The notes under the pieces: model-generated
Told to the model about the DNA's origin: nothing
The model's input: only the letters and a program-made list of their open reading frames with translations
Database searches by the model: none
Position numbers and translations under genes: made by a program
Shown here: positions 8,178 to 26,767 of the stretch, in pieces
Numbering within the stretch: position 1 is the first letter of the stretch
Layout: each line of letters opens with the position of its first letter
Sequence record: LC494302.1
Source of the DNA: Escherichia phage SP27
Direction: 5' to 3' (one strand)
DNA: 64,000 nucleotides

Positions 8178-8513
<336 letters not shown>

Positions 8514-8514
8514 A

Positions 8515-8697
8515 ATGACACACGAAGAATGGATGTCCAAACAGCATAAAGAACATGACTGCTTTGGGAATGGCATTCGTCAGGTACATTATGATATATT
8601 AAGAGATGAAAATCTTTTCAGGTCATATGTTTTGGATACCAGAAAACCCTGGTTTATATGCGAACTGGCATTTAGAAAGTCAAATAATCAAAACTAA
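8515..8697 (+). CDS. MTHEEWM-family small protein
   Basis: Starts MTHEEWM, paralog. Confidence 0.45.
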   Translation: MTHEEWMSKQHKEHDCFGNGIRQVHYDILRDENLFRSYVLDTRKPWFICELAFRKSNNQN

Positions 8698-8713
8698 ACA
8701 AGGAATACAAAAA

Positions 8714-8932
8714 ATGGAAACAACTTTATTTGAAGTTATTCAATCATTAAAACCTGAAGATGAGGTTCAAGTACTACTACATGGTTATCGTGTAAAAGGT
8801 ACTGTGGTTTTAGTCAATGATACAACATTGGTTATTACAGAAACAAACCCATATGATAGTAATCAACTTGCCAATATCCATATCGATATCACTGGAATTA
8901 TTGGTGTCGGTGTATCTAAAACACTTGCATAA
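8714..8932 (+). CDS. hypothetical protein
   Basis: Start at METTLFE after AAGGAA RBS; 72 aa. Confidence 0.4.
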   Translation: METTLFEVIQSLKPEDEVQVLLHGYRVKGTVVLVNDTTLVITETNPYDSNQLANIHIDITGIIGVGVSKTLA

Positions 8933-8985
8933 ATCATTAATTCATTATATAATGATTATCACTGGTTCTAGATGAGGATAATATT

Positions 8986-9258
8986 ATGCATTTTGAAAAA
9001 TTCAACGTAAATCGTAACACACGCATTGAAGTTCTTTATGAAACTCAAGACACCATTAGTATTCGTACAAGTAGTGGGGATGTATATCATGACTGTACGA
9101 TTGGCTGGGAACAGGGAAGAACGCGTAGTGCAGTATTTGATAATTATCGCTTTTATCAAGGAGACACTACGATTTGGCCTGAATACGTAGAAGATATTGC
9201 GTTTGAAGATGAACATAAAGATGAATTTATCAAATTTAATCCTCAAACTGAATCATAA
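8986..9258 (+). CDS. hypothetical protein
   Basis: 90 aa, GAGGATAA RBS. Confidence 0.4.
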   Translation: MHFEKFNVNRNTRIEVLYETQDTISIRTSSGDVYHDCTIGWEQGRTRSAVFDNYRFYQGDTTIWPEYVEDIAFEDEHKDEFIKFNPQTES

Positions 9259-9275
9259 ATAATGGGACATCACAT

Positions 9276-9391
<116 letters not shown>

Positions 9392-9395
9392 AAAT

Positions 9396-9497
<102 letters not shown>

Positions 9498-9502
9498 AAA
9501 CC

Positions 9503-9663
9503 ATGACGCATGAAGAATGGATGAATGACATTAATTTTAGATATGCAGGTTTCGGTAACTGGAGAAAGTATCATTGGGAAATCATGTCAGACCCAGCAGA
9601 ATACGATAAACTTATAAACCATGAAGCGTATCCGTGGTTCTTTATTGAAATAATGGTACGAAC

Positions 9664-9667
<4 letters not shown>
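9503..9667 (+). CDS. MTHEEWM-family small protein
   Basis: 54 aa starting MTHEEWM. Confidence 0.4.
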
Positions 9668-9829
<162 letters not shown>

Positions 9830-9837
9830 AAAAAAAG

Positions 9838-10247
<410 letters not shown>

Positions 10248-10251
<4 letters not shown>

Positions 10252-10281
10252 CTAAATAATTCAGTACTGAGGATATTAATA
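10248..10281 (+). promoter_or_regulatory. promoter-like element with CAGTACTG
   Basis: TTGACTaaataatTCAGTACTGagg; weaker -10. Confidence 0.35.
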
Positions 10282-10308
10282 TGTTTAAAGATGAACGTCC
10301 AGATTTGT

Positions 10309-10356
<48 letters not shown>

Positions 10357-10379
10357 ATCAGACGTATATGGTGTAAGTT

Positions 10380-10700
10380 ACGTCGATGCAATCCAGAACA
10401 AGATCTCTGGTACTCTAGGAAGTGGTGAATGTTAACCTAGACGGGTTTGATAATTGGACGATAGGCAATTATTACTTGACTAGCAGGTTGAAACTAGAGG
10501 TGACAGTCCTTCACCAAACTGGAAAACCGGATGGACTTTTATTTAAAAGGGTAAGGCGTGGAAATATGTTTACAGAAGTTGCTTTTAGTAGCCTGTACGC
10601 CCCACGTCAAGGTAGCCGAAAGGCAAGTTAAAACGGATGGTTATAAAGCTGAATTAACAGCGGCGTTTAAAAGCGTCACCATCCATTTTTTTAATTAAAG
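10380..10700 (+). ncRNA. candidate structured RNA (unclassified)
   Basis: GC-richer ~320 bp behind a promoter, no convincing ORF, GAAA-looped hairpins (GTAGCCGAAAGGCAAGT) and GGATGG...CCATCC closing stem. Confidence 0.3.
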
Positions 10701-10708
10701 TTGGTGAT

Positions 10709-11473
<765 letters not shown>

Positions 11474-11491
11474 TTCACATGATATAGGGTG

Positions 11492-12161
<670 letters not shown>

Positions 12162-12180
12162 AGAGGTACTTCGAGTATGC

Positions 12181-12304
<124 letters not shown>

Positions 12305-12307
12305 ATA

Positions 12308-12394
<87 letters not shown>

Positions 12395-12449
12395 GACTGC
12401 CAAACAGCTTGAAGTACTTTGTAGTGCTGCACCTATGCCGACACTTGGC

Positions 12450-12550
<101 letters not shown>

Positions 12551-12562
12551 TATCTTACTTCT

Positions 12563-12652
<90 letters not shown>

Positions 12653-21910: not shown

Positions 21911-22332
21911 GAGGCTATAATAAGATTTGTATTTTTGTATTTTTAGTTTGTGCATTCAATTCGTTTGGTTACTACTGTACAGAAAATAATATTTCATATG
22001 GTTTAAATCCTTTGTGGTTTACAATTTCCAATGTAGCACAAATTGGTATTGCTCTTATGTCTGCACTTATGTTCTGTCCAATTGTCACTATGGATACGGA
22101 TCATGAAAGGCTTGGATTTCTCCGTGATACTGGAGACGAACCTTACAGTAGATTGATTGTGTTGTATCCATTTATTGTTATTTTAGGTACTAACATCCAA
22201 CTTGGGTCATTATCTAATAGTGTTACATCAGCAGCTATTGCTATATTTGCATTCACATTTTTTATGGTACACAAATCAGTACTTAATTGGTATATCACAA
22301 AAATGGCAGAAGAAGGTACTAAAAATACTTGA
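21907..22332 (+). CDS. multi-TM membrane protein
   Basis: 141 aa, hydrophobic, ATGA-coupled. Confidence 0.45.
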   Translation: MRGYNKICIFVFLVCAFNSFGYYCTENNISYGLNPLWFTISNVAQIGIALMSALMFCPIVTMDTDHERLGFLRDTGDEPYSRLIVLYPFIVILGTNIQLGSLSNSVTSAAIAIFAFTFFMVHKSVLNWYITKMAEEGTKNT

Positions 22333-22357
22333 CATAATTTAGTATGTTATATATAAT
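22329..22357 (+). promoter_or_regulatory. sigma70-like promoter
   Basis: TTGACA, 17 bp, TATAAT. Confidence 0.5.
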
Positions 22358-22391
22358 TATTTTGTTAAAAACAAATTAGAGTAAGGAACTT

Positions 22392-22643
22392 ATGAACATC
22401 GATACGGTCAAAGAACTTAGTGCTGCACTAATTAAGAATGAAGAAGTTTGTGAAGAACTTCGCAGTACTATCAAAGTTGAGTACGCACGACTCCAAGGTA
22501 TGCTTCAAGAATCAGAATGGGTAGTAACTAAATCTATCGAAGCAATCTATAAGGATATCGAATCCCTTTTCAACAAGAAAAGTAAGATTGAATCTGATTC
22601 ATATAACAAACGTAAAGAGTTATCTACTGCACTTGGTATCTAA
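22392..22643 (+). CDS. hypothetical protein
   Basis: 83 aa, GTAAGGAAC RBS. Confidence 0.45.
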   Translation: MNIDTVKELSAALIKNEEVCEELRSTIKVEYARLQGMLQESEWVVTKSIEAIYKDIESLFNKKSKIESDSYNKRKELSTALGI

Positions 22644-23923: not shown

Positions 23924-24889
23924 GTGAAAAAGCTTGATTTAAATACAATTGCCGAAGAAGTTCTGGATGAATGTTTTGCTAATGAAGAAGTCAACACACT
24001 AGAAGCCTTAGATTTCGTTGAAGATAAAGATGATAATGAAGGTAAAGTACAAAGCAGTTTCAAATATAATATTACACTTAAGCGACCACCAAATGTTTCC
24101 AATGAAGATCTAATTCGTGATATTCAAGCTGGTATCAATGTAAAGAAAAACACTGAACTGTTAGTTCGTTACAATTATGGACTGATTATTGATGTAGCAA
24201 GTAAATGTACTTGTTATATCCCATTTGAAGATAAGATTTCATATGGTGTTGAGGGGTTCATGAGAGCACTAAAAACCTTTGATCTTAATAAGAATGTTAA
24301 GTTCATTACCTATGCTTCTTCTAGTATTTACATGACAGTCTATAACGAAAGTTCTGACGCTAACTATATGGTACACTTCCCACGTTATATGAGTGTTCAT
24401 AAGATCAAAGTAAAAAGATTCTGCCAGGAATATATGCGTAAACATGGTGTTCGCCCAACACCTGAAATAATCTCAGAGGGTACTGGGATTGAGATTCAGC
24501 ATGTTAATAATTGTTTATTATTTCAAAGCGAATACACTTCACTGGATGCACCATTAGACGGTGTTACAGATGGTACATTAGGTGACATTATTCATTCACC
24601 TGCTTCTGATTTTAACCTCAATGTTGATAGTATCCGTGCACCTTTACGTTATGCTATCAATGAACTGACTAACGAATTGAGTACTAAAGAACGTGAGATT
24701 ATCCAGCGTGTTCATGGTCTAGGTGAATATGAACCTGAAACGCTTCGTGAGATTGCTGATAATGGTTTTGTTGATGATAATGGAAAATATGTTAAATCCC
24801 GTTCATCAATACACCGAAAGTACAGTGAAGCTATGCAAAAGCTTAAGAAGTTAGTACTTGCAAAAGGGTACGAATACGAAGATTTCTAA
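23924..24889 (+). CDS. sigma-70-family RNA polymerase sigma factor-like protein
   Basis: GTG start after TAGGAG; region-2-like LLVRYNYGLIIDVASKC...GVEGFMRALKTFDLNKNVKFITYA; region-4-like ELSTKEREIIQRVHGLGEYEPETLREIA. Confidence 0.6.
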   Translation: MKKLDLNTIAEEVLDECFANEEVNTLEALDFVEDKDDNEGKVQSSFKYNITLKRPPNVSNEDLIRDIQAGINVKKNTELLVRYNYGLIIDVASKCTCYIPFEDKISYGVEGFMRALKTFDLNKNVKFITYASSSIYMTVYNESSDANYMVHFPRYMSVHKIKVKRFCQEYMRKHGVRPTPEIISEGTGIEIQHVNNCLLFQSEYTSLDAPLDGVTDGTLGDIIHSPASDFNLNVDSIRAPLRYAINELTNELSTKEREIIQRVHGLGEYEPETLREIADNGFVDDNGKYVKSRSSIHRKYSEAMQKLKKLVLAKGYEYEDF

Positions 24890-24894
24890 AGAAC

Positions 24895-24925
24895 AAGGGT
24901 TGGCTTATGCCAACCTTTTTTTTAT
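24895..24925 (+). terminator. intrinsic terminator
   Basis: GGGTTGGC-ttat-GCCAACC plus T8. Confidence 0.65.
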
Positions 24926-24929
24926 GGGA

Positions 24930-25540
24930 TGAAGTAAAAGTTTGTGATATAATTATCTTGTACAATTCTGTTGGCATGATATTCATGTACCTGATCCACT
25001 CGAAAACGTAGAGGGCAGTTGAGCAGTCCGACAGTGCGAACAGCAAAAGAAACCCGTTAGATGTGGGCATAGTTTGAACCCCTCACGGCAATGCGGCTGT
25101 ATAAAGAACCACGTTAGGATAGCTGGTGGTTCCTTGATAGACATATAAGGATAACACCTTACGAATTATCTAAGGGAGAGTTATCGAATTTTGTACAGGA
25201 AAGTTGCGTCCAAAATTTGAGTACTCACATTAAGTATTTGATTGCATAGATACTTAATGAAGATACACTATGTTTAAAAGTGTAGACCGTCATATGAAAC
25301 TGAAGTAGAGAGAAACAGGATGACCCGCTTTCGCACTCGTTATGAGTAATCTTCAATGCAATAGCTCTGATACCATCAGCGTCAAATTTCCCTCCTTGTG
25401 GGGGGAAGAAAAATCCCTTCCTCAAATCCCGTCAATATTAAAAGTCCTTGACAGTTATTAATCATTCGCGTAGAATACGTAGTATTAGAAGCGAACAGAC
25501 ATCTCGAAGAGATGGATGATTAACCATTAAGGAATATCAA
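24930..25540 (+). ncRNA. ~600-bp non-coding, GC-richer segment; candidate structured RNA
   Basis: No plus-strand ORF of 60 aa or more, local GC clearly above neighbours, ends in promoter TTGACA-17-TAGAAT. Confidence 0.3.
25448..25476 (+). promoter_or_regulatory. sigma70-like promoter
   Basis: TTGACA, 17 bp, TAGAAT. Confidence 0.5.
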
Positions 25541-25750
25541 ATGAATTCAGTAATCTTTTTAGTAGTCGCTTTCTCTGTTAATTCCGGTGTACAAATAACC
25601 CCAATGAATTCCATGAATCAATGCATAGCAGTACGTGATAGTACATACGAACAAGTAAACAAAGATATTTGGATTACAGTTAGTAAAGAACAAATGTGGT
25701 GTTACAATAGTAATACTAACACAAAGCTTATTGTAGGACAAACTCAATGA
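25541..25750 (+). CDS. secreted small protein
   Basis: 69 aa, hydrophobic N-terminus, AAGGAA RBS. Confidence 0.35.
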   Translation: MNSVIFLVVAFSVNSGVQITPMNSMNQCIAVRDSTYEQVNKDIWITVSKEQMWCYNSNTNTKLIVGQTQ

Positions 25751-25978: not shown

Positions 25979-26767
25979 ATGAGCACTATAGATGAACTGA
26001 TTCGACGGAATTCAAAATATTACCAACCATCAGAAATTGTAGGTAACATTACCAAATCAGAGTTTGGTCCAAATACTCGAAAACTCATTCATGTAATGTC
26101 ACGTGATGGCTTTAAATGTGATTGTTGCGGTGAATCTAATGTAGTATTCACTTTACACAAGCACAGTACTAAAGATCGTTATAAATTCAGACCTTATGTA
26201 CTTAAAGGGAAACGCCTTGTACGCATGACGTTAGACCATAATGTACTGGACTGTCTTCAGGGCGGTAATGATAAAGAGAACATGACTGCACTGTGTGAAG
26301 ATTGTAACGCATTACGCCAGCATAAGTTTGCTGAATACAGTGAGTTTAAACACTGGTATCATAACGCGGATCGTTCAATCGAGCCTGACGTTAACTACTG
26401 CTTCATTGAGTACATTAAGAATGCCAAAGATACATACATTCTTAAATCAATGTCACCTATTACCGTGTTTCCTGAGAACCTATTCACTACATTAAAGAAT
26501 AGTTTTATTGTAGGTGATATTGATGCATTCAAGTATTTTGACAAAGGTGCAAAACATTTTGAAATTCAATGTCTTAGTACTGCACTATGTGAACTCATTA
26601 AAATTTACATAAAAGAGTATTTGGGTATTGACAATGTACGTGTACCAGAGTATACTTTTTCTATTGAATTCGATTGTGAATCAATCAAAGAGTTTGGAAT
26701 TCTTTTCAATAAACAAATAGAACTTGCAATTCAAAACGAAATCAAGTACTATACTACTAACATTTAA
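25979..26767 (+). CDS. HNH-family endonuclease
   Basis: CDCCGE ... MTLDHNVLDCLQGGNDKENMTALCEDCNALRQHKF: Cys pairs and H-N spacing typical of HNH. Confidence 0.6.
   Translation: MSTIDELIRRNSKYYQPSEIVGNITKSEFGPNTRKLIHVMSRDGFKCDCCGESNVVFTLHKHSTKDRYKFRPYVLKGKRLVRMTLDHNVLDCLQGGNDKENMTALCEDCNALRQHKFAEYSEFKHWYHNADRSIEPDVNYCFIEYIKNAKDTYILKSMSPITVFPENLFTTLKNSFIVGDIDAFKYFDKGAKHFEIQCLSTALCELIKIYIKEYLGIDNVRVPEYTFSIEFDCESIKEFGILFNKQIELAIQNEIKYYTTNI

Follow-up and report, generated by a model that had tools for sequence, protein, structure and literature searches.

Few RNAs are at once large, highly conserved, and without a known function; OLE, GOLLD, ROOL, and raiA are the main examples, and most RNAs of this type occur in organisms that are hard to manipulate. 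RNA II of ColE1 and the oriF and oriG transcripts of T4 act as R-loop primers of replication origins, and the T4 origins are dispersed around the genome. Immunity of the satellite phage P4 involves the CI RNA and the repeats seqA and seqC, together with a reader, seqB, which is encoded within that region and can base-pair with either repeat. GOLLD and ROOL are large ornate RNAs of phages and prophages, are represented by Rfam families, and have been structurally determined by cryo-electron microscopy (cryo-EM) (PMC12286853). In the jumbo phage PA5oct, the "putative lncRNA" (long non-coding RNA) ncRNA002 comprises 451 nucleotides (nt) at 21951-22401, is defined by RNA sequencing, and accounts for up to ~5% of phage reads (PMC7318152). 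The present analysis concerns a stretch of 64,000 nt from Escherichia phage SP27 (record LC494302.1), hereafter referred to as the window, and in particular the region at positions 24930-25540, which carries a structured RNA followed by a pair of short direct repeats, box 1 and box 2. The preliminary description, made from the letters of the sequence, had regarded this region as a GC-richer, non-coding island between a terminator and a promoter, encoding a structured RNA (intron-like, ribozyme-like, or regulatory) or containing a cluster of protein-binding sites, and had proposed an Rfam scan and a covariation test in relatives. Both were carried out: the region matches no Rfam 15 family and a conserved structure is strongly supported. 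Judged from the comparison of homologous sequences, the element is almost certainly a genuine structured-RNA gene, specifying an RNA of ~430 nt, and the RNA family is previously undescribed and absent from Rfam 15. The principal parts of the locus are as follows.

24925..24953, + strand: promoter P1, the own promoter of the RNA gene
24962..25386, + strand: structured core of the non-coding RNA (~425 nt), containing helices P1-P15 plus three pseudoknots, defined by covariation and homologues
25375..25385, + strand: box 1 (AUCAGCGUCAA), the 3′ tail of the RNA, with the motif A-Y-C-A-x-CGUCA-R
25387..25408, + strand: conserved C-run/G6 (C4/G6) hairpin, UUUCCCUCC-UUGU-GGGGGGAAG, helix 20 of the covariation test, 86% paired
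25426..25435, + strand: box 2 (ATCCCGTCAA), repeating box 1 in direct orientation, 12 nt ahead of the -35 element of promoter P2
25448..25476, + strand: promoter P2 of the downstream genes, TTGACA (25448-25453), a 17-nt spacer, and TAGAAT (25471-25476)

The structural evidence is comparative. Twenty helices, including the three pseudoknots, were derived from the alignment and tested on a MAFFT alignment of 49 non-redundant sequences; as controls, the helix partners were slid by 1-3 columns and 500 shuffles were analyzed. Standard pairs were formed in 89.6% of cells, as against 40-44% with slid partners. The observed percentage is inflated in favour of the structure by the derivation of structure and alignment from the same sequences, whereas the counts of compensatory pair types are not. 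Both sides had changed in 76 of the 107 pairs (36-42 with slid partners), compensatory changes were present in 788 cells (94-154 with slid partners), and the covariation score was 0.415, compared with 0.07-0.10 for slid partners and a mean of 0.162 for the shuffles; none of the 500 shuffles attained any of the observed measures of covariation or pairing. The element thus shows the compensatory substitutions of a structured non-coding RNA gene well beyond the controls, and the inverted repeats pointed out in the preliminary description are real hairpins, most of which are kept in homologues with compensatory changes. A cluster of protein-binding sites would leave the 76 pairs with compensatory double substitutions unexplained. 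The folding energy of the single sequence is only mildly unusual in comparison with shuffles (z = -2.2 on either strand), and the structural case therefore rests on the comparative data. The fold consists of the following elements, all on the + strand.

24968..25037, + strand: 5′ domain, helices 1-3 of the covariation test
24968-74 / 25028-34, + strand: helix P1, 5′ domain
24975-87, + strand: variable hairpin, 5′ domain
24991-25001 / 25011-18, + strand: helix P2 with the conserved loop GAAAACGUA, 90% paired, 7 of 8 pairs covarying
25023-25 / 25035-37, + strand: pseudoknot PK1, 100% paired, 2 of 3 pairs covarying
25040..25100, + strand: central domain, helices 4-7, with near-invariant GGCAUAGUUUG...CACGGCAAUGCGGC
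25040-44 / 25096-100, + strand: helix P4, 99% paired, three covarying pairs
25054-57 / 25085-88, + strand: helix P5, central domain
25060-67 / 25079-84, + strand: helix P6, central domain
25106-12 / 25126-32, + strand: helix P7, all 7 pairs covarying with 3-4 pair types each
25146-50 / 25157-61, + strand: helix P8 (helices 8-10 of the test); P7 and P8 flank invariant GAUAGACAUAU
25178-81 / 25223-26, + strand: helix P9a, which encloses P9 (helices 11-12 of the test)
25187-93 / 25211-17, + strand: helix P9, a modular hairpin with the loop UACAGGAAAGUUGCGUC (helices 11-12 of the test)
25229..25362, + strand: 3′ domain, helices 13-19, with invariant GACCGU and GAAAC.G....ACCCGC
25229-40 / 25247-58, + strand: helix P10, 3′ domain, the loop of which forms PK2
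25241-46 / 25357-62, + strand: pseudoknot PK2, 96.7% paired, 6 of 6 pairs covarying
25264-84, + strand: helix P11, 3′ domain
25289-93 / 25320-24, + strand: pseudoknot PK3, 100% paired, 3 of 5 pairs covarying
25301-05 / 25351-55, + strand: helix P13, 100% paired, 4 of 5 pairs covarying
25308-12 / 25328-32, + strand: helix P14, 100% paired, 4 of 5 pairs covarying
25335-38 / 25344-47, + strand: helix P15, 3′ domain

The cleanest helices are the long-range and pseudoknot ones (PK1, PK2, PK3, P13, and P14); for example, the middle pair of PK1 is UA, AU, and CG in 24, 14, and 11 sequences, respectively. The P9 hairpin is a module that some paralogues lack, others carry once, and others carry again at a second site. 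Approximately 70 positions are invariant, mostly in loops and junctions (for example, GAAAAYGUA, GGCAUAGUUUG...CACGGCAAUGCGGC, GAUAGACAUAU, GACCGU, and GAAAC.G....ACCCGC), a pattern typical of ribozymes and of the cores of ribonucleoproteins (RNPs). G-U pairs are frequent (columns 417/428, UG in 33 sequences; columns 419/426, GU in 39; columns 499/520, GU in 27), and they identify the + strand as the functional strand because they would be A-C mismatches on the opposite strand.

The promoter at the 5′ end of the region, promoter P1, was read directly from the sequence and had been absent from the preliminary description. It comprises a weak -35-like TGGGAT (24925-24930), a 17-nt spacer, and an extended -10 element, TG-a-TATAAT (24945-24953), and is missed by a consensus promoter scanner because its -35 hexamer is poor. 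The extended -10 element lies 7-9 nt ahead of the first conserved base of the RNA, and transcription is expected to start at about 24960-24962. An extended -10 element (TGnTATAAT / TGnTAnAnT) is found within 105 nt upstream in 45 of 48 homologues, whereas 0.087 are expected per 105 nt. With this second promoter in addition to promoter P2, the TTGACA-17-TAGAAT of the preliminary description, which is present at the end of the region with 11 of 12 matches, the island constitutes a transcription unit of its own. An intrinsic terminator (hairpin and T-run) directly follows box 1 in 34 of 49 homologues and is absent from the window copy. Conservation of the promoter and terminator is what points to transcription of the + strand; no transcriptome of a Rak2-like coliphage was found in the literature searched. 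An antisense promoter directed back across the boxes was also considered and was dropped, since the minus strand carries a -35-like TTGACG/CTGACG and no convincing -10 element.

Box 2 recurs 47-87 nt downstream of box 1, past the optional terminator and the C4/G6 hairpin, and the order of the cassette (promoter, RNA, box 1, usually a terminator, C4/G6 hairpin, and box 2) is kept as a unit. The two boxes co-vary in identity and not in complementarity. At the Y position (columns 604/695), T/T is found in 32 copies and C/C in 17, with no exceptions; the mutual information of these columns is 0.93 bits, and each is the strongest partner of the other. The R position (columns 613/703) agrees in 45 of 49 copies, and the rare variants UGUCA, CUUCA (with ACG), and CGACA (in a Serratia chromosome) always occur in both boxes of one copy. 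When placed on the tree, these changes represent several independent coordinated events, and paralogues in one genome can differ. A complementary partner of the boxes was found neither in the RNA alignment nor within 900 nt on either side, nor was one enriched genome-wide. In the intervening C4/G6 hairpin (helix 20), the sole variation seen in 7 of 9 pairs is a C-to-U change facing G; the hairpin therefore acts as a + sense single strand, either as RNA or as displaced DNA, and such variation would not fit a duplex protein-binding site. The short 3′ module (hairpin and box 2) may have a role at the DNA level. Beyond box 2, the 5′ untranslated region of the downstream mRNA contains the following candidate homologue of a recurrent hairpin.

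25497..25520, + strand: hairpin GACAUCUC-GAAG-AGAUGGAUGA in the 5′ untranslated region of the downstream mRNA

By eye and by regular expression, hairpins of this type were recognized in 29 of 54 phage and bacterial copies. Past box 2, at 25497-25520 in the window and in other loci, roughly half of the copies from phages and bacteria have two conserved hairpins, one with an apical ACGNAGUGA and the other composed of GAAAAUUCUUGAC, a stem, a GNRA-like loop, the second stem strand, and GGCAAAU, with an A-G mismatch. The conserved unit may therefore reach ~200 nt beyond the RNA core. The presumed likeness of ACAGGAUGACCCGCUUUCG to the P4 strand of RNase P and that of the post-hairpin module to rrn boxA find no support in Rfam or in the complementary strand that they would require.

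That no open reading frame (ORF) occupies the gap, as the preliminary description had held, is confirmed by 9-12 stop codons in each + strand frame (24962-25449), and the ORFs overlapping the region 24930-25540 are all short, with at most 75 amino acids (aa). The frame and strand of the longest stop-free stretch differ between homologues, and the indels among homologues are not multiples of three. A missed protein-coding gene was rejected on the basis of the lack of a conserved frame, the non-triplet indels, and the compensatory substitutions in helices, and a 39-aa ORF across both boxes (25342-25461) was rejected as being without conservation in homologues. The higher GC content is real and modest, amounting to 0.391 in the region, 0.41 in the RNA core, and 0.342 in the window, with a maximum of 0.43-0.45 in 200-nt windows at 24900-25199; among 611-nt windows across the 64 kb, 6.6% are at least as GC-rich as the region.

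Rfam 15 comprises 4227 covariance models, including those of GOLLD, ROOL, OLE, raiA, HEARO, RNase P, transfer-messenger RNA (tmRNA), 6S, group I/II introns, T-box, and riboswitches. At gathering thresholds, cmscan with these models detected only six transfer RNAs (tRNAs) in the 64-kb window. When hits at E up to 10 were admitted for 24800-25650, the best scores were 12-19 bits against thresholds of 37-88, which is noise only, and most of the sub-threshold scores fall on the upstream terminator. The more specific labels of the preliminary description are not supported as memberships, as no intron, ribozyme, or riboswitch family of Rfam matches. A tmRNA or tRNA-like RNA was rejected, as neither Rfam nor ARAGORN, which found no tRNA or tmRNA in 24900-25550, gave a match in the region. 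A group I/II intron was likewise rejected: the element is flanked on one side by an intact sigma-factor gene, terminator included, and on the other by a small ORF unrelated to that gene, and its own promoter and the presence of paralogues in unrelated intergenic settings also count against an intron. The NCBI annotation pipeline PGAP leaves the copy on an E. coli chromosome unannotated, and no description of the RNA was found in the literature by full-text searches that included conserved sequence strings.

Homologues were searched for at the sequence level, by which remote ones (for example, in PA5oct or in Klebsiella Rak2 beyond loci L070/L105) may be missed. BLASTN with a 450-nt core retrieved 61 phage records (61-70 overall), all of which are Rak2-like jumbo phages; their hosts are Escherichia, Salmonella, Erwinia, Yersinia, Serratia, Pectobacterium, Cronobacter, Klebsiella, and Xanthomonas. 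Identity between genera is ~70%, each genome carries the RNA in 2-5 places, and the RNA region is nearly always unannotated. Full-length homologues were recovered by nhmmer with E-values of 1e-35 to 1e-127. Two motif scans of IMG/VR yielded ~65 copies, of which 49 are mutually <97% identical; the near-invariant GGCAUAGUUUG...CACGGCAAUGCGGC motif drew 21 loci from IMG/VR, and the metagenome scan contained about 45 true homologues among the matches listed (at least 120 loci). No phage outside the jumbo group carries the RNA among the phage records searched, and no match was found in 72,556 plasmids.

The window belongs, by sequence, to Asteriusvirus (slurp01/121Q-like), a group of Rak2-like jumbo myoviruses with genomes of ~350 kb. 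It aligns to positions 4507-68506 of vB_Eco_slurp01, and the 10 kb around the RNA locus is 99-100% identical to vB_Eco_slurp01, CRJP21, 121Q, and PBECO4. The 64-kb window contains no second copy, the paralogues being outside it, and no copy was found in slurp01 68-118 kb. In the complete genome of the close relative ECO103 4-12-1, nhmmer located four full-length copies on the same strand at 18, 128, 208, and 262 kb. Four ancient paralogues are present in Asteriusvirus genomes and up to five in related genera, and the tree indicates that the paralogue types are older than the split of the genera. The copies all run in one direction, shared by 464 of 517 ORFs, and are rather evenly spaced: a minimum gap as large as the one observed would arise by chance with a probability of 0.0045 in GAP32 and 0.0051 in Serratia phage BF, which have five copies each, and of 0.05-0.06 in the Asteriusvirus genomes, which have four. 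An ADP-ribosylglycohydrolase-like gene lies directly downstream of one paralogue type (L109 6897-7730; L022 2416-3258; L066 6582-7457), and one bacterial island (L133) has a homologue at a distance of ~5 kb from its RNA.

The RNA is additionally found in bacteria. A motif scan of one genome per species followed by a profile filter identified nine bacterial genome loci, with E-values of 1e-50 to 1e-81 for the true homologues, in Serratia fonticola, Serratia sp., Silvania, Citrobacter amalonaticus, Enterobacter chinensis, Buttiauxella, and other Enterobacteriaceae; in E. coli, 2 of 5426 complete genomes carry it. The bacterial contexts are small integrated islands with one RNA copy and a serine or tyrosine integrase immediately upstream, often followed by a convergent cI-like S24 repressor gene and a Ner-like gene; in E. 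coli LR-29-1, the RNA resides in an 11-kb island at ffs. In Serratia fonticola NZ_CP183218.1, the RNA lies at the edge of an island, adjoining a duplicated rof gene (likely an att duplication), and this island, which encodes a serine recombinase and two ParB-like proteins, differs in type from the int/cI/ner islands. Essentially no proteins are common to the islands and the jumbo phages: tblastn of island proteins against jumbo-phage DNA matched only DUF4326 and ADP-ribosylglycohydrolase-like proteins, neither of which is consistently linked to the RNA. No conserved protein partner was found; Pfam searches with 10 flanking phage proteins gave unrelated families only, and clustering of bacterial neighbours gave integrase, cI-like, and Ner-like genes, none of them universal. 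The flanking proteins differ among phage paralogues as well as among islands. Since the RNA cassette alone is common, it behaves as an autonomous, horizontally mobile module that must work alone or with host factors. With its own promoter and terminator (the latter absent from the window copy), its position between unrelated genes, and its occurrence in unrelated elements, the RNA behaves like an RNA "moron" captured by, or donated from, enterobacterial islands.

The RNA is proposed to act on its own locus, because the boxes are kept identical and have no complementary partner. In this mechanism, the 3′ tail of the RNA (box 1) would hybridize, at box 2, to the opposite strand of the DNA (the template strand), and the pairing would open a short R-loop beside the G6/C4 hairpin, just upstream of the next promoter, where the folded RNA body would recruit or position host machinery. 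The likeliest outcome would be priming of leading-strand DNA synthesis, the element being an RNA-specified origin module; alternatively, the adjacent promoter would be activated. Taken as a whole, an explanation that combines the RNA gene with a mechanism at its own locus is somewhat favoured. The RNA-specified origin or primer module, considered jointly with its promoter-activator variant, is tentatively preferred among the mechanisms, though less likely than not. Pairing of the tail with the DNA would be the simplest account of two identical boxes without a complement, and the preference also draws on evenly spaced copies that share the orientation of most genes, on the hairpin with its G-run, and on the lack of dependence on phage proteins. 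The fully self-addressing form, in which the 10-11-nt tail of each paralogue recognizes its own downstream box through an R-loop and recruits host machinery, is rather doubtful, and the same degree of doubt applies to the further notion of a portable origin or activator placed every 55-110 kb in jumbo phages and captured by enterobacterial islands, which are possibly satellites. If the origin/activator idea is true, it would explain how early replication or transcription is organized in 350-kb phage genomes and would represent a new type of RNA-addressed DNA element.

Several observations weigh against such action at the DNA of the own locus. An RNA:DNA match of 10-11 nt is short, and the evidence of even spacing comes from few syntenic genomes, which are not independent. 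The window copy and ~30% of the others are terminator-free, and their transcripts may run through box 2, which would place both boxes in one RNA. The C4/G6 hairpin, tolerant of G-U pairs, is no less compatible with transcribed RNA than with DNA displaced as a single strand. A -35-like element (TTRAMN) follows box 2 by 7-14 nt, and by 10-12 nt in many copies, in only 31 of 54 homologues. Furthermore, an origin or activator needs no such elaborate, ribozyme-like conserved fold, and no replication genes were found in the island stretches viewed.

The main rival is an "ornate" RNA that acts in trans only, comparable to GOLLD, ROOL, OLE, and raiA, which would be abundant, folded, and possibly multimeric or protein-bound, and would manipulate a host process or block a defence system; this is conceivable, if on the unlikely side. 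The repeated box would then serve for binding or processing, being required close to the 3′ terminus of terminated and read-through isoforms alike, with no RNA:DNA pairing. Such a function is in keeping with the independent promoter-gene-terminator unit, the resemblance of the mostly unpaired invariant nucleotides and three pseudoknots to ribozymes or RNP scaffolds, the high gene dosage in jumbo phages, the movement between unrelated mobile elements without a conserved protein neighbour, and the G-U pattern of the C4/G6 hairpin, which suggests that the hairpin is transcribed. It leaves unexplained, however, why box 1 and box 2 change in a coordinated manner in each copy while the paralogues of one genome differ, and why the copies are evenly spaced and co-oriented; moreover, a mechanism that says no more than that the RNA binds "something" does not yet lend itself to testing.

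A cis-acting leader or attenuator is improbable. Its fold would sense a ligand, a tRNA, a protein, or RNA polymerase and gate read-through of the terminator into early genes, either in riboswitch- or T-box-like fashion or by processive antitermination as in HK022 put and lambda nut, with the boxes as alternative pairing partners. Promoter, structured domain, intrinsic terminator, and genes do occur in that order in most copies; the terminator stem of one paralogue type (GUCAG...CUGAC-U8) has box 1 as its 5′ arm, and the terminator-free window copy precedes co-directional genes. The downstream genes, however, are unrelated between paralogues, and a convergent gene follows paralogue B (a baseplate protein) and most bacterial copies (a cI-like repressor), so that the coherent set of co-directional downstream genes of a riboswitch or attenuator is not seen. 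The RNA lies outside any gene, and a co-directional gene is not consistently downstream. A separate promoter follows box 2 in many copies, no sequence complementary to the boxes is available for alternative helices, and no riboswitch, T-box, or other Rfam family matches. The weakest candidate, a DNA-level element such as a cluster of protein sites, a recombination site, or a mobile-element scar, with the repeats as a target-site duplication or att core, can point to direct repeats 47-87 bp apart around a hairpin, to integrases adjoining the bacterial copies, and to homing-endonuclease-like genes near two phage copies, yet in its pure form it is essentially excluded, on the sequence comparison, by the covariation (76 pairs with compensatory substitutions on both sides, and strand-specific G-U pairs) and is further opposed by the conserved dedicated promoter, and its target-site duplication or att core is rejected because the 40-80-bp inter-box segment is kept in every copy without scar-like decay and the adjoining integrases belong to two unrelated families (serine and tyrosine), with none beside the jumbo-phage copies.

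The immediate neighbours of the RNA gene in the window are as follows.

23924-24889, upstream of the RNA gene: phage sigma-factor gene (in close relatives, the annotation reads RNA polymerase sigma factor)
24895..24926, + strand: intrinsic terminator of the sigma-factor gene, a 10-bp stem (24895-24918) followed by a T-run
25541..25750, + strand: first downstream ORF, 69 aa, without a family match, given as context

The upstream terminator is present where the preliminary description had placed it, and it is the left edge of the RNA element, outside the RNA itself. Two genes downstream of the RNA, a 262-aa ORF (25979-26767) has CxxC...HN...CxxC motifs and no Pfam match, and is an HNH endonuclease by annotation in 121Q and PBECO4; a DUF723/treble-clef endonuclease-like gene lies upstream of paralogue B. 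Elsewhere in the window, positions 8200-12642 contain a six-gene tRNA cluster, in which ARAGORN assigns a tRNA-Ser with the odd anticodon ACT to 11128-11219, and a marginal Rfam tRNA match at 9396-9474 is not called by ARAGORN. In slurp01, ~7.6 kb past the window's right edge, 2.2 kb (76.1-78.3 kb) are devoid of ORFs and dense in repeats: a 60-bp unit occurs three times in tandem, CAGTACTGA-like motifs occur more than 20 times, and GGATGGCTAGACGGCTAAACGG repeats and several G/C hairpins are also present. In appearance, this stretch resembles a replication origin or terminus or a hub of regulation. It is preceded at ~74.2-76.1 kb by a tandem array of about ten paralogous ORFs of ~60 aa that start with MHKEYY or MNKEH.

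The three covarying pseudoknots, the 3-5 ancient paralogues, and the movement between lytic jumbo phages and integrative islands argue for an important, host-factor-dependent function. The RNA is present in phages that grow on E. coli K-12 (slurp01 and Sharanji) and in an E. coli chromosome, and therefore genetics, transcriptomics, and cryo-EM are applicable to it. The identity rule of the boxes provides a mechanistic handle that is open to compensatory mutagenesis. Additionally, ~2 kb of "hypothetical protein" mis-annotation per genome can be corrected in roughly 70 deposited phage genomes.

In comparison with known systems, the RNA resembles riboswitch and T-box leaders and processive antiterminators (put and EAR) in the succession of promoter, structured RNA, and intrinsic terminator, whereas it is much larger, its downstream genes are neither conserved nor always co-directional, and it has no Rfam match. 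The PA5oct ncRNA002 is of similar size and comes from a distantly related jumbo phage, where small early genes flank it; as a homologue, it was rejected at the sequence level (nhmmer). As in P4, two short direct repeats occur in one transcription unit. Those of P4 stay alike through a base-pairing reader, whereas no complement to the present boxes occurs within 900 nt on either side or is enriched in the genome. With GOLLD and ROOL, the RNA has in common a length of several hundred nt, a location on phages and mobile elements, a stand-alone unit, a dense pseudoknotted structure, and invariant loops. It differs from them in the absence of a covariance-model match even at E up to 10, in its occurrence in Enterobacterales and their jumbo phages rather than in Lactobacillales and rumen bacteria, in its 3-5 ancient paralogues per genome with the identity repeat of box 1 and box 2, and in its position away from tRNA genes, the tRNA cluster of the window being 12 kb distant. 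Compared with ColE1 RNA II and the T4 oriF and oriG transcripts, there is no sequence or Rfam similarity and no evident antisense partner like RNA I, and neither RNA II/RNA I homology (Rfam) nor presence on a plasmid (72,556 searched) connects the RNA with the ColE1 type; the site matching the tail is a separate downstream copy and not the transcribed template itself, and the fold is far more conserved and knotted than in known primer RNAs. In common with these origins, the RNA proposed here would be a transcript of 400-550 nt made by host RNA polymerase, the 3′ part of which would engage DNA just downstream, with a G-run beside the site and, as in T4, several dispersed loci. An origin module that works with host enzymes only would fit the transfer of the cassette between unrelated elements.

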